DNA from: a bacterium
GTDB lineage: Bacteria > Patescibacteriota > Minisyncoccia > UBA6257 > UBA9933
DNA length: 64,000 nt
Direction: 5' to 3'
Assembly: GCA_021796335.1 (NCBI GenBank)
Contig: JAJYHZ010000002.1
Location: 29,728-93,727 of the forward strand
Part shown: piece by piece, positions 9,976 to 62,840 of the stretch
How positions within the stretch are numbered: the stretch's first letter is position 1
Layout of the letters: every line of letters starts with the position of its first letter
Notes under the pieces: generated by a model
Seen by the model: the letters and a program-made list of their open reading frames with translations, nothing else
Databases searched by the model: none
What the model was told of the DNA's origin: nothing
Made by a program: the position numbers and the translations under genes

Positions 9976-10008
9976 CAAAAAAGCCCCTCACAGGCTTTTT
10001 TGTTTTTT
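9976..10008. terminator. bidirectional intrinsic terminator (aaaaaagcc-cctcaca-ggctttttt)
   Basis: Hairpin with an A-tract and a T-tract, immediately downstream of the pilin gene. Confidence 0.55.
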
Positions 10009-10026
10009 AAATTTAAATTTTGAAGA

Positions 10027-10452
10027 CTATCTCGTAACCGAAATTGGGTTGGTAACTTCTCCGGTTGCGCCAACAGTCGTTCTCCTGGTAGTCGGATCGT
10101 AAACCACGCTGTATCCTGTCGCAGTCGAAGTTCCGGTTGACGGATCCATGGGCATGACGGAGATATATGTCGGAACAATACACGGCTCTATATTATAATT
10201 ATTTGCTCCGCTTCCCAATTCCATTGTGGTGGTAGGTAATGCGCCTGCTCCGCAGGTGAAATTACCGTGATTGTCAACCATATTCTGGCCGATAGCATTC
10301 AAGATCGAGTTAACATTGCTCCATCTCTGCGTATCGCGCGCCTGGGCAAACTGCCTTGCCGGGTTAATGGCAACAATGACGACACCCGCCAAAATGGCGA
10401 TGATACCGATAACAACCAACAATTCGATCAATGTAAAACCTTTGTTTCTCAT
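10027..10452 (-). CDS. type IV pilin / pseudopilin, copy 1
   Basis: Class III signal peptide MRNKG|FTLIELLVVIGIIAILAGVV (Gly-1, Phe+1, Glu+5); 141 aa. Confidence 0.7.
   Translation of the reverse strand: MRNKGFTLIELLVVIGIIAILAGVVIVAINPARQFAQARDTQRWSNVNSILNAIGQNMVDNHGNFTCGAGALPTTTMELGSGANNYNIEPCIVPTYISVMPMDPSTGTSTATGYSVVYDPTTRRTTVGATGEVTNPISVTR
10034..10440. repeat. 407-bp direct repeat, copy A (pilin mature-domain coding sequence)
   Basis: 100% nucleotide identity to 10537-10943 by eye, offset 503 bp. Confidence 0.8.
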
Positions 10453-10529
10453 TTTTGTCTTTTGAATTTTTCCTCGACCTTTTCTTGATTATGATAAATT
10501 ATCCTATTTATAAAGTTTTATTGCAAGAA

Positions 10530-11042
10530 TTATCGGGTAACCGAAATTGGGTTGGTAACTTCTCCGGTTGCGCCAACAGTCGTTCTCCTGGTAGTCGGAT
10601 CGTAAACCACGCTGTATCCTGTCGCAGTCGAAGTTCCGGTTGACGGATCCATGGGCATGACGGAGATATATGTCGGAACAATACACGGCTCTATATTATA
10701 ATTATTTGCTCCGCTTCCCAATTCCATTGTGGTGGTAGGTAATGCGCCTGCTCCGCAGGTGAAATTACCGTGATTGTCAACCATATTCTGGCCGATAGCA
10801 TTCAAGATCGAGTTAACATTGCTCCATCTCTGCGTATCGCGCGCCTGGGCAAACTGCCTTGCCGGGTTAATGGCAACAATGACGACACCCGCCAAAATGG
10901 CGATGATACCGATAACAACCAACAATTCGATCAATGTAAAACCCGCGTCCGAATAACGCCCTACGGATGCGCCCATCAGAATTTTATTTTTAAATTTCGT
11001 CATATCACTAATATTCGCAAATCTGATTACGAATTTCACCAA
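10530..11042 (-). CDS. type IV pilin / pseudopilin, copy 2
   Basis: Mature domain identical to copy 1. Longer, atypical leader ...MGASVGRYSDAG|FTLIELL; the true start may be an internal Met at about 11003 or 10976. Confidence 0.65.
   Translation of the reverse strand: MVKFVIRFANISDMTKFKNKILMGASVGRYSDAGFTLIELLVVIGIIAILAGVVIVAINPARQFAQARDTQRWSNVNSILNAIGQNMVDNHGNFTCGAGALPTTTMELGSGANNYNIEPCIVPTYISVMPMDPSTGTSTATGYSVVYDPTTRRTTVGATGEVTNPISVTR
10537..10943. repeat. 407-bp direct repeat, copy B
   Basis: Identical to 10034-10440; identity stops exactly at the leader-peptide codon and at the last codon before the stop. Confidence 0.8.
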
Positions 11043-11200
11043 TCATAAATATATTTCTATCTTGTGATTATTTGTGTTTAATTCGCGTAGATTCGATAAT
11101 GCGTTTGCCGACTTTTATTTCCATTGAAATAAATTATCTTATTTATGAAAAATTATTGCAACTGCCTTGATTCCATTTACTGACAAATTTCTGCAAACCC

Positions 11201-11226
11201 AAATATTGAACGATCGTTCAATATTT
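11201..11226. promoter_or_regulatory. 26-bp perfect palindrome aaatattgaaCGATCGttcaatattt upstream of the pilin genes
   Basis: Perfect inverted repeat centred on CGATCG; member of a dispersed family (see findings). Confidence 0.5.
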
Positions 11227-11295
11227 AGATCGATTATTCACATTTACAAAAATGTAAATATACGCCTGCATAAATGAAATGGATAATCTCTTTAT

Positions 11296-13434: not shown

Positions 13435-15118
13435 TTTGAGGCAAAGATTTTTTCTTCAGCGACTTGAAAATCAAAGCGCCAGCGACCAGCATAACGCCGA
13501 AGCCGACAATATAATAAATCAACGCCATAGGAAGCGATCCGCTCGCAACGCGCTGTTTATCGGGAATGGAAAACGATTTTGCGGAAGCAACTTTTTTATA
13601 AGCATTATTTCCTATTTTTTTATAAACTATCGCGTAATAATTTCCGGGTTTTAAATCGGCGGCGGCGGTGTAGTCGGCCGAGCCGGCGGAAATCTGTTTT
13701 ATTAGCTGACTTTTTGAATTAAAGATATCAATTCGAAATCCCTGATTCGATTCCGCGGAAGACGGCCAAGAAATCACGGCTGAGCTGTTTGAAGAACCGG
13801 AGCCGCTTCCGTTATTCGTGCTTATATTCAAATTCGGCGCCTGGCTTGATTGAGTTTGGGTGGCGGTAGCGGTTTGACTCGTTTGAGAAATTTGGCCGGT
13901 TTGATTGTTATCAGTAAAAGCCTGGGGATTGATCAACGAACCTTGAAGCGTATTAAAATTTAAGTATGCCTCCGCAAAATCGCCGGACGGATCGATGGAA
14001 ACAATCATAGCGACGTATTTAGTATCCGAACTCAAAACGTTTTCAGTAATAAGCAAATGCTCTAGTTCGTAAGTTTCATCGCCGACACTGGTAAGGGTTT
14101 GAGAACCCGGCTTATCCAGCCTAATCAACAAACTGGAGTTGGCGGCTTCGTTTGTTTCCCAGGAAATTTCCACGGAGCTGGTGCTTAAGGCGACAATCTG
14201 AGGATTGGAGATTGCGAGCTGAATCGCCGTGGAAGTGCTTTCATTGTTCGGCGCAGTAGATGAAGTCGTCGAGGCACTAGGCTGCCAGCCGGGCGAACTA
14301 ATGAAGGAACCTACGTAGCTTCCTTCATTTCCCCAATTGTCTTTTACAAAAAGCTGAAAAACATACGCGACATTAGGCATGACGGACAAATCCATACTAC
14401 ATGTTCCTAATCCGTACTGGCAGGTAAAATAATTCCCCGAATAATTCGTACTTTGAACAGCACTTTGATTTTCAAGCGGCCAATAAGAAATTTTATAATC
14501 AGCCGGCTCATTGGTATTGAAATTAATTCTGACGTCATTGGAATCCAAAACCGAAGGAATGACATTGGAAAGAATCGGAGCGGAAACATCGCCTGTTTCA
14601 TAAAGGGAGAAATTAAAAGTATAAGGCTGTTCATTCGAACCGAGATAAACCGGACCGATTTGCTTGTCTAAAGTATCGTTCGAATTCTGAACCTGTAATT
14701 GGACCATGTCGGTGTAATAAATTCTCAACTGAGGCATGGAACTTTTAATTTCGATTTTATAAGTTTGGTCGCTTGCAACCTTAACGGGAGAATTCAGTTC
14801 TACGTGAAATCTTTGGCCGCCCCAAGTTGTCGGAGCTATATACGGAACGGTTATTGTTTTAGAAGAAAGGATGTTATCACTATCATCAAGCAGAATAAAA
14901 GTTGCCTGTCCCGAAGAACTGGTATTCGCCAGAAAGAAATCAAATCCGCTCAAATAATCGTCGAATGGAATAAAAGTCTGATAAGGTGTTTGAGCCGAGG
15001 CTACAAACAAATAATCCGAAGTATACGGATTGTATTCATAATATTTCAATTCCGCGGCGGATGATAAGACCGGGATCGAAATTAAAATAAATAAAGTTAT
15101 AAAAATTTTTTTGGCCAT
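13424..15118 (-). CDS. secreted surface protein with a C-terminal TM anchor, possibly pilus-associated or an adhesin
   Basis: Signal peptide (FITLFILISIPVLSSAAE), S/T-rich extracellular repeats, C-terminal hydrophobic anchor plus KKK. Confidence 0.4.
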   Translation of the reverse strand: MAKKIFITLFILISIPVLSSAAELKYYEYNPYTSDYLFVASAQTPYQTFIPFDDYLSGFDFFLANTSSSGQATFILLDDSDNILSSKTITVPYIAPTTWGGQRFHVELNSPVKVASDQTYKIEIKSSMPQLRIYYTDMVQLQVQNSNDTLDKQIGPVYLGSNEQPYTFNFSLYETGDVSAPILSNVIPSVLDSNDVRINFNTNEPADYKISYWPLENQSAVQSTNYSGNYFTCQYGLGTCSMDLSVMPNVAYVFQLFVKDNWGNEGSYVGSFISSPGWQPSASTTSSTAPNNESTSTAIQLAISNPQIVALSTSSVEISWETNEAANSSLLIRLDKPGSQTLTSVGDETYELEHLLITENVLSSDTKYVAMIVSIDPSGDFAEAYLNFNTLQGSLINPQAFTDNNQTGQISQTSQTATATQTQSSQAPNLNISTNNGSGSGSSNSSAVISWPSSAESNQGFRIDIFNSKSQLIKQISAGSADYTAAADLKPGNYYAIVYKKIGNNAYKKVASAKSFSIPDKQRVASGSLPMALIYYIVGFGVMLVAGALIFKSLKKKSLPQNEN

Positions 15119-22838: not shown

Positions 22839-22928
22839 AAATAAGATTTATTTTAAAAAGCCGACCTTTTTTTAATTATACCGCCAATGGGATTTGCCAT
22901 AAATAGGAATAAAGTTTACGAAAAACTA

Positions 22929-22951
22929 AAAATCCGCCGAAGCGGATTTTT
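22929..22951 (-). terminator. terminator hairpin aaaaatccgcc-gaag-ggcggattttt at the 3' end of rnpB
   Basis: Perfect stem with a T-tract on the minus strand. Confidence 0.55.
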
Positions 22952-23036
22952 AGGCAAGTAGTAGGCCGGATTCTGTTTCTAAGCGATAATTTATCTGGGT
23001 CCGCCATTACTGGCGGACTCAAGCGGCACCCCCATA

Positions 23037-23158
23037 CGCACCTCACTAAAGTTCGGTGCTCAATTTCCAATCGGCCTAATTTCTAATTTTCTAAAATTTA
23101 GAAAATTAGGTTGATTAGGACCTAGAATAATCCGAGCATCTCGCCTTGGTGAGATGCG
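23037..23158. repeat. 122-nt element with terminal inverted repeats, copy 1 (inside rnpB, P15-17 region)
   Basis: Identical to 23411-23533 except for a 1-nt indel. Termini cgcacctcac ... gtgagatgcg are inverted repeats; internal long palindrome cctaatttctaattttctaaaatttagaaaattagg. Confidence 0.75.
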
Positions 23159-23410
23159 ACGGGTACGGCCTTGCACCCAATAAGGATTTAGCCGTTTCAC
23201 CCCTGGCGTTTCCGTCAAGGCTATTCCCGAAGGAATTTCCAATCCTTTCGGATTAGAACGTCTCTGCTCGCACCTCTCACATTGCTGCGGCCGGCTGTTA
23301 GCCAGTATCTTTTTAATCCATTGCCTTTTAGTTAAGAGAAGTTGCTTGGATTTAACCAAACAAATTTCATATAAAAAGCGCTGGAATAAGTGTCCGGACC
23401 TTCCTCTCGC

Positions 23411-23533
23411 GCGCACCTCACTAAAGTTCGGTGCTCAATTTCCAATCGGCCTAATTTCTAATTTTCTAAAATTTAGAAAATTAGGTTGATTAGGACCTAG
23501 AATAATCCGAGCATCTCGCCTTGGTGAGATGCG
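23411..23533. repeat. 123-nt element with terminal inverted repeats, copy 2 (inside rnpB at the P3 position)
   Basis: As copy 1; sits between the putative P2 5' strand and the P4 5' strand. Confidence 0.75.
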
Positions 23534-23584
23534 CCGAGCTATCGCTCCCTTACATCACTAATTTTAAATCAATTCTAATATTTG

Positions 23585-23935
23585 TCAAATAAGATTTTTT
23601 AAAATCAGGTATTCTTTCAGGGCAACGGCATTGTTGAACATCTCATTTTTAGCAGCGTATAACAGGGTTAGCGGCTGCCCTTTATGATTTAAAAGCTGCT
23701 TAATTGCATGTTTATTCCCTTCCAATTCTTTAAAATATTTCTGTTTAAATTCAGCCCATTTTTGGGGATCGTGGTTAAACCATTTGCGAAGCTCATTGCT
23801 GGGACCGACTTCCTTTAACCATAAGTCGATTTGATCATTGTTTTTTTGAAGACCCCTCGGCCACAATCTATCTACCAAGATTCTTATGCCATCCTTTTTT
23901 TGAGGAAGATCATAGACTCGTTTTATTTTGACCAT
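23585..23935 (-). CDS. DUF488-family protein
   Basis: RVYD...[13 protein letters not shown]...W.KEVGPS..LRKWF.HDP.KW.EF matches the DUF488 pattern. Confidence 0.5.
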
Positions 23936-39962: not shown

Positions 39963-40541
39963 TTATTTTAAAGAGCTAATAATTTTATCCCACCTCCTTT
40001 TGTGTGCTCTTTTTTCCTTTTTGGTCATTGAATTTGTTAAAGAAAAAATGGACTGAACCACTTTTATCGCTTTTGTGTTTTGCTTATGATTATTTGAAAA
40101 TTTTATTGCAACATTCTCCCATTCTTGAAGATGATTTTTTTTAATTTTTTCTCCGAGTAATTTTCTCACGTGATTAATGAATTTCTCACTACTTTTAAAT
40201 TGGCTATAGTCATAACAAAAATTTCCATTATAGCGAAGATTGCTTATAGAAATAATATATAAAGAGCCGGGAATTTTATTTTGATATTCTTTCCTCAAAG
40301 ACTTAAATATATTACTAAAATCATGATTTAAATCATGCAATCGTTTCTGAAAATCTCTCTCACTCTCAAAGATTTGATCCTTTGCCCAAAGACACTTTAA
40401 ATATTTTTCAGCACTTTGTTGGAGCATCCATAACGATTGAGCAATTAGACCAGTATTCCACAAAATGCGCGCAGCAACTAAATCTGCCATTGCAATTTTT
40501 TGTATTGTACGCAATTCAATGTTTAGATTAAATTCTGTCAT
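39963..40541 (-). CDS. HEPN-domain protein (solo)
   Basis: N-terminal LVAARILWNTGLIAQSLWMLQQSAEKYLKCLWAK resembles the HEPN helix signature; candidate Rx4-6H motif RLHDLNH. Confidence 0.35.
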   Translation of the reverse strand: MTEFNLNIELRTIQKIAMADLVAARILWNTGLIAQSLWMLQQSAEKYLKCLWAKDQIFESERDFQKRLHDLNHDFSNIFKSLRKEYQNKIPGSLYIISISNLRYNGNFCYDYSQFKSSEKFINHVRKLLGEKIKKNHLQEWENVAIKFSNNHKQNTKAIKVVQSIFSLTNSMTKKEKRAHKRRWDKIISSLK

Positions 40542-41814
40542 TATTTTTCAAAATCTTTGAAATTATTTTTAAAGACTTTTTTATTTCTTCTCCGGTTGTA
40601 AATTTTCCGAAACTGAAACGCAAACTGGAACAAATCCGCTTTTCCGACAAGCCCATCGCTTGAAAAACATGAGATTTTTTGGCGCTAAAAGCGGCGCAAG
40701 CCGAACCGCTTGAAACTGCGATACCGTTTAAATCCAGTTTAATTAATAAATTATTGGCTTCAAAATCCGGGAAATAAATATTTAAAATATTCGGGACAGC
40801 GTTTAGTTCGCCGCGGCGGACAGGATTTAAGAAGGGATTAAAACCATTAATCTGCGCGGCGGGATAAATTTTTTTCAGATTTTTCCAAAAATAACCGGAT
40901 AATTGATGAATTCGTTTAAATTCTTTTTCGCGATTTTTTTGCACCAGTTCAACAGCCTTTGCAAACCCGACAATATACGGAACATTTTCCGTGCCGGAAC
41001 GCAAGCCGAATTCCTGGCCGCCGCCAGTAATAACGGGATTCAGAATACAGGATATAGGATTCAGGGATTTTACGTGAAGGAGCCCGATTCCCTTGGGACC
41101 GTAAATTTTATGGGCCGACAAGGTCATCATATCCACTCCCAATTCTTGCGGATTGCAATTTAAAAATTGAAATGCCTGAACAGCGTCCGTATGGAATAAC
41201 GGGCGGGATATAGGATTTATGATATAGGATTTAGAGTTCTTTTTTGAATTTTTGCTATCCGCCGACTGGCGGACTAAATTCTTAACTCTAAATTCTTGTA
41301 TTATTTCAAAAACTTTAGAAATCGGTTGAACAACTCCGGTTTCGTTATTCGCATACATTATTGAAACCAGAATTGTATTCTCATTTAAATTTTCTTTTAA
41401 CTTTTTTAGATCAACAATTCCATATTTATTAACGGGCAAATAAATTACTTCAATTCCGTCATCTTCCAGATCCCGCGCCGTACTTAAAACTGATTCATGT
41501 TCGACTGCCGAAACAATAATCCGCGGTCTGGGAGTTTTATTTTTAAACGTTTTAACAATTCCGCGAATTGCCAAGTTATTCGCCTCGGTTGCCGAACCGT
41601 TAAAAATTATTTCGCGAAAATCACCTCCAATCGTTTCGGCAATTTTTTCGCGGGATTCATCTACGGCCTTTCTGGCTTGCTGGCCAAAAAAATGCAGTGA
41701 ATTCGGATTCCCGAATCTGCCGGCGGACGGACGGCTAAAATACGGGCTCATCGCTTTTTGGACTTCACTGTCAACCGGAGTTGACGCCGCGCAGTCAAAA
41801 TAAATTCGTTCCAT
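40528..41814 (-). CDS. cysteine desulfurase (IscS/NifS class V aminotransferase) with a roughly 29-aa in-frame insertion
   Basis: YFDCAASTP, NPNSLHFFG, SAHKIYGPKGIG (PLP Lys), C-terminal SSGSAC. The start is taken at MERIYFD (the ORF-track start is 41901). Confidence 0.65.
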   Translation of the reverse strand: MERIYFDCAASTPVDSEVQKAMSPYFSRPSAGRFGNPNSLHFFGQQARKAVDESREKIAETIGGDFREIIFNGSATEANNLAIRGIVKTFKNKTPRPRIIVSAVEHESVLSTARDLEDDGIEVIYLPVNKYGIVDLKKLKENLNENTILVSIMYANNETGVVQPISKVFEIIQEFRVKNLVRQSADSKNSKKNSKSYIINPISRPLFHTDAVQAFQFLNCNPQELGVDMMTLSAHKIYGPKGIGLLHVKSLNPISCILNPVITGGGQEFGLRSGTENVPYIVGFAKAVELVQKNREKEFKRIHQLSGYFWKNLKKIYPAAQINGFNPFLNPVRRGELNAVPNILNIYFPDFEANNLLIKLDLNGIAVSSGSACAAFSAKKSHVFQAMGLSEKRICSSLRFSFGKFTTGEEIKKSLKIISKILKNNDRI

Positions 41815-41860
41815 AGTTATTATTAAAACAAAAAGGCGGGCTTTAGCAACAACCCGCCGT

Positions 41861-42184
41861 TTAAATATAATTCCCCCTTTCTTTATCATGAAGATAGCCA
41901 ATCAGATCCATGTGGATTCCTCCGGAAACATTTTTCAATTCCGGGAAAATATCCCTGGCGCTTTCTTCGGCTTGCGCCACTATTCTTATCCTGACTTCAT
42001 CATCAGGATATTCGACTACTTGCACGATTTGATAAATACATTCTCGTGCGAGTTCATTGGAAAGCCATTCCGGAGCATCAAGAACCTCAAGGATGGCCTT
42101 GGCAATTTCCCAATCCGCCAATCCAGCGGGCTCCTTTCCATGAACGGAAATATAAGCCTTATAGAGGCATTCTATCACCGTCAT
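41861..42184 (-). CDS. hypothetical protein
   Basis: 107-aa ORF; no motif. Confidence 0.3.
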   Translation of the reverse strand: MTVIECLYKAYISVHGKEPAGLADWEIAKAILEVLDAPEWLSNELARECIYQIVQVVEYPDDEVRIRIVAQAEESARDIFPELKNVSGGIHMDLIGYLHDKERGNYI

Positions 42185-46194: not shown

Positions 46195-47856
46195 ATGCTT
46201 GATAAAAATATTATTTCAAAATTGTCGAGAATCAGGCGGGAGTCCGAAGAAAGGACGGTGAGCCGCCGCGCAGCAAAAATCGGAAAAAAGTATTTAAATC
46301 TTTCCACGACTCCGATCACCATAGAAGCTTTGGCAATATTGCCGGAAGCCGTTGCAAAAGAAGCCGGCATTGTTGTAATTGAAAAAAAGGCCAATAGAAT
46401 TGCCGTTGCCGCAATCGACCCGAAAAATGCCAAAACGGAAAAAGTCATAAGAGACTTGGAAAATAATTACGGCGTAACGGTTTTCGTAGTTTCGGAAAGC
46501 AGCCTTAAATACGCCTTGGATTATTACAAATTCGCCGAAAAACAAACAGAAGATATTACTGGCGAAATTTCGGCCAAGAAAAAGGAAATTAAAGAAGAGG
46601 ATTTGCTGACTTTGGACGGCATAAAAAAATTCCTGGACAAAGAAGAATTGTCGGGAAGCAAAGCAAACGAAATTTTGGAAATTATTTTCAAAGGAGCTTT
46701 AGCGAACAGAGCTTCCGACATACATTTCGAGCCGACGGGAAAAGAGGCAAAATTACGATTAAGAATTGACGGACTCTTGCATGATGTTTACACATTCGAG
46801 CTTAAATTTTATTCGTTCATCGTTTCGCGCATCAAATTGCTTTCCGGCCTTAAATTGAACGTTTCCAACGAACCGCAGGATGGTCGCTTTACAATCAGCT
46901 TTACGCAAAAAGACGTCGAAGTGCGCGTGGCAGTGGCGCCGGCGCAATTCGGCGAAGTCATCGTCATGCGCTTGCTTGATCCGGACGCGATCAATCTGGA
47001 CTTAAAACAATTAGGATTGCGAGAAGACGATTTGGAGATAATCGAAAAAGAACTGAAGCGGCCAAACGGACTTATTTTGAATACCGGTCCGACGGGTTCC
47101 GGAAAAACAACCACTCTTTACGCATTCTTACAGCATAAAAAAACTCCGGAAATAAAAATAATTACAATCGAAGATCCAATTGAATATCGCATAAGCGGAA
47201 TCGAACAGACTCAGGTGGATGAGGAATCGGGATATGATTTCGCATCGGGATTAAAATCTTTAATGCGGCAGGATCCGGACATAATCCTGGTAGGTGAAAT
47301 CCGCGACAAGGAAACCGCCGAAATCGGCATACAGGCGGCTTTGACCGGTCATTTGGTTTTTTCCACAGTTCACGCTAATTCCGCAAGCGGCGCCGTTCCC
47401 CGCTTGCTTGATTTAAACGTCAAGCCAGTTAGTATCGGCCCGGCCTTGAATTTAATAATCGGGCAAAGACTGGTCCGCCGTCTTTGCGCAAACTGCCGAA
47501 TTCCAAAAACAGCTACGAATGATTTGGAAGATAAAGTAAATAATTTTTTGAGAAAATTACCCGGCCGGGTAAATAAAGATGATTATAAAGAAATAAAATT
47601 GTTTGAGGCGAAAGGATGCCCTGCTTGCAACGGAACTGGATTCAAGGGACGCATCGCCATTTATGAACTTTTAAAAACCGCTCCGGAAATGGAAGATTTG
47701 ATTATCAAACAAACCGGGGAAACCGCGATTTATAGATTCGCAGTCGGGAATGGCATGACGACTATGCAACAGGACGGGATTTTGAAAGTGATTTCCGGAA
47801 TAACGACTTTTAATGAGGTGGAAAATGTGACCGGACCGATTGAATGGGAAGAATAG
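46195..47856 (+). CDS. pilB: type IV pilus assembly ATPase PilB/GspE (full length)
   Basis: N1 domain, Walker A GPTGSGKTTT, Asp/His boxes, tetracysteine CANC...CPAC; 553 aa. Confidence 0.8.
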   Translation: MLDKNIISKLSRIRRESEERTVSRRAAKIGKKYLNLSTTPITIEALAILPEAVAKEAGIVVIEKKANRIAVAAIDPKNAKTEKVIRDLENNYGVTVFVVSESSLKYALDYYKFAEKQTEDITGEISAKKKEIKEEDLLTLDGIKKFLDKEELSGSKANEILEIIFKGALANRASDIHFEPTGKEAKLRLRIDGLLHDVYTFELKFYSFIVSRIKLLSGLKLNVSNEPQDGRFTISFTQKDVEVRVAVAPAQFGEVIVMRLLDPDAINLDLKQLGLREDDLEIIEKELKRPNGLILNTGPTGSGKTTTLYAFLQHKKTPEIKIITIEDPIEYRISGIEQTQVDEESGYDFASGLKSLMRQDPDIILVGEIRDKETAEIGIQAALTGHLVFSTVHANSASGAVPRLLDLNVKPVSIGPALNLIIGQRLVRRLCANCRIPKTATNDLEDKVNNFLRKLPGRVNKDDYKEIKLFEAKGCPACNGTGFKGRIAIYELLKTAPEMEDLIIKQTGETAIYRFAVGNGMTTMQQDGILKVISGITTFNEVENVTGPIEWEE

Positions 47857-47893
47857 AGCTGATAGTTATTAGCAAGTTGGTTGTTAGTAGTTT

Positions 47894-47927
47894 AAAAAAG
47901 AGGTGATATATATCACCTCTTTTTTTC
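47894..47927 (+). terminator. terminator aaaaaagaggtgatatatatcacctcttttttt
   Basis: Perfect hairpin gaggtgatat/atatcacctc plus a T-run. Confidence 0.65.
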
Positions 47928-48342
47928 TGCACTTTTTAGTTCTGTGGGCGAAAATAAAAGTCTTACAGGAGTAAGAAATCAAGAACCCCTTCGAGGAGAG
48001 ATCCAGCCAAAACCAGATCATCCGAAATACTAAAAGAAATTCCTATAAACCCACAGGACTAAGAAGTCCAGATTCTATATTCTTCTACAAAAGGGAGTAA
48101 TAAAAAACACCCTTTTAAGAGTATTAAATTCAATTCTTTTCCCATTATAGCGGGTTTTATAAATTTGTCAAGACCAGGCAAGGTTAGATTGATTTTTGTA
48201 AAAATAAGGAAAGCCCCGGATTGTACGGGGCTTAATAATTGAAAAGAATATTTTAAGGATCTCCAATTGAATAAAGAAGGCGAAAAAGAAAAGAAATGAT
48301 TGAAATTGAAATTGTGTATTGTGTTTTGAAATTTAAATTATA

Positions 48343-48379
48343 GAGGACGATCGCGCGTAGGTACGTACGCGGTCCTCTG
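48343..48379. repeat. GC-rich nested palindrome agaggac-gat-cgcgta-ggtacg-tacgcg-g-gtcctct in an ORF-free region
   Basis: Two nested perfect stems (7 bp and 6 bp) around GTACGTAC. Confidence 0.5.
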
Positions 48380-48689
48380 TGCTGATTTCTTTTTCTTTTC
48401 CAATTATTCAATTGTAATTTTATTTTAATTCTTTTAATTCAATAGTCAATACGACACGACGTTCAGGCAGAGCATGGATCTCACGAAAAAAACGGTTTCA
48501 GCAGAAAAATAAAGTCGCAAACGATGGAAGGAAAGAGAAAAACCGCCACTATAATCCCTTTCTCTCTTTCCGTAAGTTCACTGAAGATTACCGTCTTTGT
48601 CAGAATAGCTTTCATTATTACCCCTTTCTTTAAGCGATATCTGGATATTCTGTTTTAATTTTATCCAATGTTTTACTTTTTTAAAAGAG

Positions 48690-48698
48690 TGCTATAAT
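48690..48698 (+). promoter_or_regulatory. extended -10 element TGcTATAAT for the 48786-50880 operon
   Basis: Consensus TGnTATAAT about 88 nt upstream of the first ATG. Confidence 0.35.
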
Positions 48699-48785
48699 TT
48701 ACATAATTAATAATTTATAAGGAGAAAATTCCGAAGTTAAAACGCGATTCAAACTTCGAAGATTTTAACTTTATAAATATCCGCT

Positions 48786-48983
48786 ATGCTAAAAAATAAC
48801 CAGCATAATCTGATCCATCAGCTTTCGGAAATTTCCGACAGCCTTTGGAGAATCGAAAAACACTATCTTGATGAATCGAAAAGTTGTGAATCCTGCGTTG
48901 AAATATGGAGAATACTCCACCAGGATTACGAAAAACATATAGCCATGCTTTCCGAAGAAATAAAGAAGCACATAAACGATTAA
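48786..48983 (+). CDS. small hypothetical protein (65 aa)
   Basis: ORF whose TAA stop overlaps the next gene's ATG (TAATG). Confidence 0.3.
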   Translation: MLKNNQHNLIHQLSEISDSLWRIEKHYLDESKSCESCVEIWRILHQDYEKHIAMLSEEIKKHIND

Positions 48984-56321: not shown

Positions 56322-56403
56322 ATTTAAATTATTCTAATGCCAAATCATTCTAATTTCTAAACTTTAAGTTAATTAGAGTAATTAGTTAATTAGAAATTCG
56401 AAG

Positions 56404-56955: not shown

Positions 56956-57034
56956 AAAATCACTCTATCCGGTGTTTTTAATCAAACATGTTTATATAAA
57001 TATTACCGTTATTATTGAGAGAAATCAAAATTTT

Positions 57035-57070
57035 CAATCAAATTTTGAGCGATCGCTCAAAATTTGATTG
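57035..57070. repeat. 36-bp perfect palindrome caatcaaattttgaGCGATCGCtcaaaatttgattg
   Basis: Perfect inverted repeat; a near-copy at 62207-62244. Confidence 0.7.
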
Positions 57071-57099
57071 GTTATCCACATGACTTCAAAAAGGCTTGC

Positions 57100-62206: not shown

Positions 62207-62244
62207 CCAATCAAATTTTCTGCGATCGCTCAAAATTTGATTGG
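62207..62244. repeat. 38-bp near-perfect palindrome ccaatcaaattttctGCGATCGCtcaaaatttgattgg
   Basis: Copy of the 57035 palindrome with 2 central mismatches. Confidence 0.7.
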
Positions 62245-62840
62245 GAACTTCTTATTTTTATTAAATCCGCATTTTTTGCCGTTTTAAAAGCAGGAAGAGA
62301 ACATTTGAGGCATAAAAATTCATTATCCACCTTATTGAAATAAAACGTATTTTTATTGGAGCAAACCGCGCATTGGGAGAACTCCGGATTAAAGCCGCTC
62401 ACTTTTAAAATAAGCTGGTATGCCTGAAACTCGTCCAAATCTCTTTTGATTATTTCCTTAATCACCTGCCATAAGAGCAGATCCGGCTGAAATTCAAAAG
62501 TCATATCATCGATAAAATTGATTATGCGCAAATGTTTGATTAATGATTCCTGATTACCTTTTATTTTTTTCAGATTTTCTTTGTCGGAGAGCGCGTCAAT
62601 TAGTTGAAAATAGCCGTTTTTATTGTTAATAAGCCGAATCTTAACGAAACTTAACGGTTCCAGATGCGGATTGGACTTGGAAAGTATTCGGCGCAAGCCT
62701 TTGGCTTTGGCAATAACCTTACCGAATTGTTCGGTATAAAAATAAATCAACCCGTCTGTATCGTTAAGAGCTTCCTTATTTAGAACAATAGCCTCAGAAT
62801 AGTATTCAAGCATAGAAATAGCGAAATTAATTGTTAGCAA
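62211..62840 (-). CDS. recO: DNA repair protein RecO
   Basis: N-terminal OB fold (EAIVLNKEALNDTDGLIYFYTEQFGKV), C-terminal zinc finger CAVC...CLKC. Confidence 0.55.
   Translation of the reverse strand: MLTINFAISMLEYYSEAIVLNKEALNDTDGLIYFYTEQFGKVIAKAKGLRRILSKSNPHLEPLSFVKIRLINNKNGYFQLIDALSDKENLKKIKGNQESLIKHLRIINFIDDMTFEFQPDLLLWQVIKEIIKRDLDEFQAYQLILKVSGFNPEFSQCAVCSNKNTFYFNKVDNEFLCLKCSLPAFKTAKNADLIKIRSSQSNFERSQKI

Follow-up and report, generated by a model that had tools for sequence, protein, structure and literature searches.

The window analysed here, a 64-kb stretch of DNA from an uncultured bacterium of the Patescibacteria (Candidate Phyla Radiation, CPR), holds an rnpB gene for a bacterial type A RNase P RNA in which two identical palindromic blocks of 122 nt occupy the tips of helices P3 and P16. 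These blocks are probably insertions into a gene that is still working; they resemble the intervening sequences (IVS) of rRNA genes and would have been copied or homogenised recently. Judged from sequence and gene order, the locus is a working, syntenic type A RNase P RNA gene for which catalysis is predicted. The gene and the two blocks lie as follows:

22953..23556, minus strand: rnpB, bacterial type A RNase P RNA, ~600 nt with both inserts and ~360 nt without them
23412..23533, minus strand: copy A of the 122-nt insert, within the apical loop of P3, between P2 and P4
23037..23158, minus strand: copy B of the 122-nt insert, within the apical loop of P16 and 5 bp away from the GGU motif

Two identical blocks in an RNase P RNA gene

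Base-by-base comparison and BLAST showed that copies A and B have the same orientation and are identical at 122 of 122 positions. An earlier reading of this DNA from its letters (the sequence-only reading) had recognised both copies, which are real, but the 1-nt indel that it described between them is absent, and the upstream copy spans 23412-23533 rather than 23411-23533. In repeat detection, the starts of the two copies were 375 nt apart, the middle segment measuring 253 nt, and their 23-nt termini occurred twice each in the window with up to three mismatches allowed, the chance expectation being 0. The ends of the block, CGCATCTCAC and GTGAGGTGCG, are terminal inverted repeats (complementary at 9 of 10 positions as DNA and at 10 of 10 as RNA, with one G-U pair), and its interior is a low-complexity, AT-rich palindrome with no open reading frame (ORF). 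As RNA, the block folds into an imperfect hairpin of about 50 bp with a free energy of -45.8 kcal/mol, while shuffled versions averaged -23.4 (z = -7.0) and none of 200 was as good. This agrees with the inverted-repeat ends and long palindrome noted earlier. Since the complementary strand is as stable (-47.7 kcal/mol), the block is a strand-symmetric DNA palindrome; a helix formed by drift of the RNA would not be expected to behave in this way.

It had been proposed that the flanks of each block pair and that the blocks extrude as helix extensions, and the folds of the block and of the full transcript are in line with this. When the full transcript was folded without constraints, both blocks gave identical, independent hairpins stacked on their flanks, the terminal 10-bp stem resting on five native pairs; at the 3' junction a single nucleotide is bulged. 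Copy A sits at the apex of a P3 of which CUCG/CGAG, a further G-C pair and one bulged G remain; its assignment to the place of P3, between P2 and P4, is upheld by the orthologues, which have a plain P3 hairpin there. Copy B, previously located in the P15-P17 region, could be placed more precisely in the apical loop of P16, P17 being absent from this lineage. In the resulting model, the hairpins would point outwards, and P1, P2, P4, P15, P18 and the entire specificity domain of the ribozyme would stay intact.

A permissive cmscan of 22850-23700 detected no group I or group II intron family, and it found no Rfam family in the interior of the block, the hairpin attracting chance-level microRNA-type matches alone. 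A bulge-helix-bulge junction of the archaeal intron kind was ruled out by the single bulged base and the continuous helix. An ORF at 23060-23416, within rnpB, had no Pfam match and was treated as spurious.

The identification of the region as an RNase P RNA gene, already made in the sequence-only reading, is confirmed by RF00010, by the syntenic orthologues and by the pairing of the core. The permissive cmscan gave a match to RF00010 (type A) of 63.2 bits (E = 9e-19) with the inserts included. The gathering score of this family (100 bits) is not reached by the insert-bearing gene, and for this reason a default Rfam scan of the whole window did not call rnpB and returned one tRNA as its sole match. 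The inserts account for the low score, which is also usual for CPR bacteria (PMC8172020). In the alignment, the 3' half (P15, P18 and the 3' strands of P2 and P4) had high posterior probability and copy B appeared as a long insertion within P16/P17, but the 5' part was misaligned because copy A separates P2 from P4.

The transcript is bounded by these signals:

23561..23588, minus strand: sigma-70-type promoter, TTGACA at 23588-23583 (-35), a 16-nt spacer and TAAAAT at 23566-23561 (-10)
22926..22953, minus strand: intrinsic terminator, a 12-pair stem followed by TTTTT

The promoter matches the consensus at 11 of 12 positions, and the relatives carry TATAAT-like boxes at an equal distance from P1. 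The gene would start near 23554-23556, immediately 3' of the promoter, so that the 3' end of the extent first proposed (22953-23575) can be kept while its start, judged from the promoter, has to be moved.

Orthologues and conservation of the core

We compared the gene with six syntenic orthologues of 327-395 nt from related Patescibacteria, three of them found by cmscan and three located via their P4 strands; the three found by cmscan scored 119.2, 108.8 and 86.6 bits with RF00010. P3 is a plain hairpin of 6-11 bp in all six (e.g. GCUCCGAUUUAAUUCGGGG), and P16 is equally plain (e.g. AUCCGUC-AAUC-GGCGGAU). The 122-nt block was found in none of them, nor did BLAST detect it in about 150 kb of the relatives' DNA, and the site of copy B is a clean gap in every orthologue. 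Without the blocks, the window gene measures 364 nt and is collinear with the six. Intermediate lengths of P3 or P16 were not seen among these relatives. The sequence-only reading had named blocks aligning as native P3/P12-type helices in related genomes as the observation that would speak against insertion; we looked for it, and all six orthologues lack the block. As these orthologues are syntenic, the blocks count as material added to the P3 and P16 tips, and the comparison of sequences supports their reading as derived insertions, not ancestral helices.

Gene order supports the orthology. A PGK-DHH-RNase H series lies upstream in the window and in the six relative loci (L134, L136, L138, L140, L142 and L143), with rnpB downstream in the same orientation. 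The PGK protein, encoded 3 kb upstream of rnpB, has its nearest relatives, about 63% identical, in proteins named Candidatus Wolfebacteria, Patescibacteria group or Paceibacterota. No homologue was found for the 216-aa downstream neighbour, and the homologues of DUF488 are spread over many phyla.

The structure was threaded by hand (P1, P2, P4 as a pseudoknot, P8, P9, P12-P16 and P18) on an alignment of the window gene without its blocks and the six orthologues. The elements that bear on the argument are:

23549..23553, minus strand: P1 5' strand GUAAG; partner CUUGC at 22954-22958; 97% of cells paired in 7 sequences
23540..23546, minus strand: P2 5' strand AGCGAUA; partner UAUCGCU at 22982-22988; 95.8% paired
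23534..23538, minus strand: 5' strand CUCGG of the native P3 stub; partner C23411, bulged G23410 and CGAG at 23406-23409; read from the sequence
23393..23405, minus strand: conserved AGGAAGGUCCGGA, holding the P4 5' strand AGG-U-CCGGA at 23393-23401; partner UCCGGCCU at 22963-22970
23310..23387, minus strand: AU-rich extra hairpin, lineage-variable, between P5 and P7/P8, outside the repeat
23159..23163, minus strand: 5' strand CCCGU of the native P16 stub; partner AUGGG at 23031-23035; U23036 bulged
23025..23030, minus strand: GGU motif at 23028-23030 (from the sequence), then the P15 3' strand GCC at 23025-23027; P15 100% paired
22999..23018, minus strand: P18 hairpin GUCCGCCA-GUAA-UGGCGGAC; high posterior probability against RF00010; 6 of 8 pairs covary

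The GGU motif at 23028-23030 is what we take to be the binding site of the pre-tRNA CCA end in a type A RNase P RNA. The core structure comprises 66 pairs, with 92.8% of cells paired and changes on both sides in 40 of the 66. In 500 shuffles, not one of these values was attained, and sliding the partners by 1-3 columns lowered the pairing to 33-43%. The P2 proposed earlier (AGCGAUA/UAUCGCU) is backed by compensatory changes at two of its seven pairs (GC to AU and CG to UA, in either direction), and at the bottom of P16 pairing is 100%, with all four base pairs covarying. P4, AGG(U)CCGGA/UCCGGCCU with its bulged U, is 100% paired in the seven sequences and includes one compensatory pair; its strands, corresponding to the conserved AGGAARGUCCGG and ACAGAAYCCGGC of type A RNAs, are both invariant across the alignment. 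One landmark had to be reassigned. The alignments place the sequence read before as J11/12 (AGGGGUGAAACGG, GGUGAAACGG) after P14 and directly 5' of the P11/P10 3' strand. In the columns that are invariant among the six relatives, the window gene keeps 122 of 124 positions, where the relatives themselves keep 85-98% in leave-one-out comparisons.

Type A RNAs normally have a short junction between P5 and P7/P8. The hairpin found there in the window gene has counterparts in L140, L134 and L138 (the longest in L138) and none in L136, L142 and L143, so that the clade's rnpB has a third variable site, which is independent of the 122-nt block.

Two further observations were made in the relatives' loci. 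L142 encodes, at 642-1010, a stand-alone "23S rRNA intervening sequence protein" (PF05635), and L140 contains, at 13472-13720, part (82 aa) of an IS200/IS605-type Y1 transposase. Together they hint that IVS-associated and hairpin-dependent mobile elements circulate in the clade.

Origin of the blocks

The sequence-only reading had described the block as a selfish element resembling a miniature inverted-repeat transposable element (MITE), and the searches for signs of mobility did not bear this out. There was no third copy in the window or in the adjoining 9.4 kb to the left and 8.0 kb to the right of the same genome (81.4 kb in all), and no isolated terminus-like 11-mer in the window; a weak similarity at 56328-56385 proved to be merely an AT-rich intergenic palindrome. 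Among the 60 ORFs of the window, none had a transposase, integrase, homing-endonuclease or nuclease domain. The flanks (CTCGG and CGCGAG around copy A, CCCGT and TATGGG around copy B) show no target-site duplication, with no direct repeat outside the block. In 185,579 species-representative genomes, the exact pattern CGCATCTCACC-N85-115-AGTGAGGTGCG had no true match, the sole one being a chance occurrence within GC-rich coding DNA of a metagenome-assembled genome of the Verrucomicrobia. Two scans of viral contigs with 22-mers of the block, and BLASTN of the block against phages and plasmids, were equally negative. As a mobile MITE, the block is unproven.

A metagenome scan with GCATCTCACC-N5-10-GAGATGCTCGG was uninformative. 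It gave more than 120 matches, nearly all of them in a coding motif that reads HLTFFEMLG and then NFSFGDYFK, with a 6-nt gap; the remainder were unrelated coding sequences with longer gaps, and none had the 5-nt gap of the element. With this 6-nt gap, the 27-nt word (GCATCTCACC-N6-GAGATGCTCGG) matches the conserved motif in well over 100 soil and sediment contigs of the JGI. Part of the 5' end of the block is, by coincidence, nearly identical to this ubiquitous coding word. The HLTFFEMLG / NFSFGDYFK motif presumably belongs to alanyl-tRNA synthetase.

The presence of two copies in 0.6 kb and of none in the rest of about 81 kb points to local copying, to a site preference for hairpin apices or to strong selective filtering, and makes random transposition an unlikely source. 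On the basis of these results, we believe that the probable explanation is that two identical palindromic insertions, comparable to IVS and recently copied or homogenised, reside at the P3 and P16 tips of a working rnpB. This explanation starts from the anatomy of the gene, the identity of the copies, their absence from the orthologues, the conservation of the core and the autonomous folding of the blocks. A palindromic module would have entered one helix tip at the DNA level and, in a recent copy-and-paste event, would have been copied to the other; alternatively, the two copies may have been homogenised by gene conversion. It would persist since, at these two peripheral positions, it merely lengthens a helix. 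The copies being direct repeats on either side of an essential 253-nt core, recombinational deletion would be lethal and only conversion would be visible. In the mature RNA, the hairpins may either be kept as passive, expansion-like arms or be cut out by a double-strand-specific RNase, as happens with rRNA intervening sequences; if they are cut, the pieces of the ribozyme would be joined through base pairing.

Several points weigh against this explanation. The search in the same genome extends over about 81 kb, and copies may exist elsewhere, for example in the rRNA genes; the scans of the collections demand exact matches, so that diverged copies would be overlooked. A convincing target-site duplication is missing, the most that could serve as one being the terminal CG...CG of the block (2 bp). 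None of the relatives is close enough to date the gain, the nearest PGK being about 63% identical and rnpB 68-75%. Moreover, the P16 extension begins 5 bp from the GGU loop, presumably the CCA-binding one, so that strict neutrality of the insertion is an assumption.

Other explanations have to be considered. The block could be a genuine dispersed MITE that moved in trans and has many copies elsewhere, those in rnpB being the survivors of random insertions at permissive sites. Its size, its 10-nt terminal inverted repeats, its AT-rich interior and its strand-symmetric palindrome would fit, and repeats in structured RNA genes have precedents, such as the Rickettsia palindromic element (RPE) in the tmRNA gene (PMC1458961). 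Nonetheless, we consider this unlikely: both copies are within 0.6 kb and the remaining ~81 kb are empty, which contradicts the high copy number without which two random insertions in a gene of ~360 bp are very improbable, and neither a transposase, integrase or homing endonuclease in the 60 ORFs, nor a target-site duplication, nor a true match in species-representative genomes, viral contigs, phages or plasmids came to light. A quite improbable possibility, in our opinion, is that the blocks are a functional elaboration of native helices (e.g. a platform for a protein or a partner RNA) that arose at one site and was duplicated to the other, gene conversion then keeping the copies the same since a pair of equal modules is of use. 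The equal orientation and perfect identity of the copies, their position on conserved native stems, the variability of the clade at the P5-P7 hairpin and the extended helices known in CPR RNase P RNAs (PMC8172020) are compatible with it. However, P3 and P16 are short and simple in the six relatives, with no intermediate lengths, and the stability of the hairpin has no sense-strand bias, as in a DNA-type palindrome; it is for these two reasons that a duplicated native helix is the less likely origin. In addition, the AT-rich, low-complexity interior has no Rfam match, and no candidate partner was identified.

It is very improbable that the arrangement is an assembly artefact or a strain chimera, in which either one copy alone is real or the copies of two co-occurring strains were joined via the shared middle. 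It is true that short contigs from several other samples end at or inside the repeat, and that the 253-nt middle is shorter than typical insert sizes, so that a de Bruijn path could switch strains. Yet a copy of 122 nt is also shorter than the assembly k-mer (k141 in the ENA contig identifiers), which means that each was bridged with both flanks; a 236-kb ENA contig carries both copies, and two contigs from different samples link one copy to the other through the 253-nt middle. The locus is identical to ENA contig ERZ27233565:k141_687534, the same genome is represented by GCA_027334705.1 (contig DAHWUH010000001.1), and each of the four element/flank junctions is seen again in assemblies made independently from other samples. 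No empty-site allele was found among the contigs of any sample examined, and the polymorphisms that were seen are all outside the blocks. We give practically no credence to a decaying rnpB pseudogene that tolerates insertions while an intact second copy resides elsewhere. The RF00010 score under the gathering threshold could suggest it; however, 122 of the 124 clade-invariant positions are kept and all core helices pair. The invariance of the core, together with the intact promoter and terminator and the orthologous syntenic slot, argues against a pseudogene.

A more far-reaching hypothesis is that the blocks belong to an undescribed CPR class of palindromic modules that colonise the helix apices of structured-RNA genes and are removed by a double-strand RNase, which would yield a three-piece RNase P RNA (~20, 250 and 85 nt). 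The pieces would be held together by P1-P4 and the helix stubs, and the short ORF-less insertions in rRNA genes are possibly of the same class. We judge this to be a rather remote prospect. About 0-2 kb past the right end of the window, the same genome carries (locus L146, 5820-8018) the genes of Archease and the RNA ligase RtcB with a 73-aa ORF between them. This system for cutting and joining RNA deserves to be kept in view, given that the hairpins in rnpB look removable, although a link between the two would be speculative.

Relation to known systems and other features of the window

In the literature searched, we found no direct precedent for an rnpB carrying a MITE, an intervening sequence or a repetitive element. 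By analogy, the blocks most resemble the IVS of rRNA genes, among which are the short insertions known from CPR bacteria; these would be their closest functional counterpart. Tsurumaki et al. (PMC11270868) described in the rRNA genes of CPR bacteria many short (<200 bp) insertions that are neither introns nor ORF-bearing and are for the most part located where stem-loops begin or end, at their base or top; they proposed that these are IVS of the RNase III type. Like the IVS of bacterial 23S and 16S rRNA, the blocks measure about 100-200 nt, have no ORF, replace the terminal loop of a peripheral helix and have ends that pair; they are also sporadic, being absent from orthologues, and occur in a host lineage rich in such insertions (PMC11270868). 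Unlike those IVS, they are in rnpB, and two identical copies occupy non-homologous helices of one gene. Moreover, the trait that defines an IVS, excision by RNase III without religation, which leaves the mature RNA in fragments, is for the blocks a possible fate.

Repetitive sequences in essential RNAs offer a second comparison. STRR repeats (short repetitive sequences in tandem arrays) are said to have been described by Vioque in 1997 in helix P12 of cyanobacterial rnpB. As with these and with the RPE in the tmRNA gene (PMC1458961), the blocks are repetitive non-coding sequence tolerated in a helix of an essential RNA. However, RPE and STRR are dispersed families of high copy number in which the RNA-gene copy is one of hundreds, whereas no block was found outside rnpB in ~81 kb, and a long hairpin differs from both the tandem heptamer array of STRR and the in-frame coding palindrome of RPE. 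With MITEs, the block shares its length, terminal inverted repeats, AT-rich palindromic body and lack of coding capacity, but it has no target-site duplication, no dispersed copies in the available sequence and no parent insertion sequence with matching ends.

RNase P RNAs of CPR bacteria are known to be unusual. Lui, Nielsen and Arkin 2021 (PMC8172020) reported that many of them fall under the Rfam thresholds, with "large extensions of helices" or with helices missing; P16 and P17 are lacking in many, and an extended P15 is one example. The window gene, from the same radiation, conforms to this in its sub-threshold RF00010 score, its helix extension and its lack of P17. The extensions described in that work are, in contrast, idiosyncratic and were identified by manual refolding, with no module repeated at two helices and no clean insertions defined by orthologues (PMC8172020).

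As far as the literature searched allows us to say, a discrete, repeated and foreign-looking module at two helix tips of one RNase P RNA gene appears to be undescribed. Few ribozymes have been studied as well as RNase P RNA, whose peripheral helices are known to be variable. The locus provides a natural experiment in which extra RNA is tolerated at P3 and beside the GGU loop that we take to be CCA-binding, and it adds a third essential RNA to those, rRNA and tRNA, in whose genes CPR bacteria are known to carry insertions. Should the hairpins prove to be excised, this would be, to our knowledge, the first naturally fragmented bacterial RNase P RNA. It also illustrates why covariance-model annotation overlooks an rnpB of this kind and why assemblies break there.

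The window contains other repeats. A family of near-perfect palindromes of ~38 nt (CAATCAAATTTTGAGCGATCGCTCAAAATTTGATTGG, core GCGATCGC), unrelated in sequence to the block, occurs at 57028-57071 and 62207-62250 and, more diverged, at 11196-11232; these might be bidirectional terminators or a repeat like the repetitive extragenic palindromes. A direct repeat of 300 nt with 96% identity (10004-10303 and 10507-10806) extends over two small neighbouring genes in which N-terminal methylation (type IV pilin-like) motifs are encoded; they are recently duplicated pilin paralogues in a larger cluster resembling those of pili or type II secretion systems (PilB-like ATPase, T2SSF). The ~1 kb between the PilB-like ATPase gene and the next gene (47856-48905) has no wholly internal ORF longer than 52 aa, and its best Rfam match was a chance-level fragment of CsrC. 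Finally, a class-V aminotransferase ORF (40528-41901), which matches its Pfam family in two separate stretches, overlaps the downstream ORF of a HEPN-domain protein (39963-40541), an arrangement that could be an insertion or fusion in a housekeeping gene.

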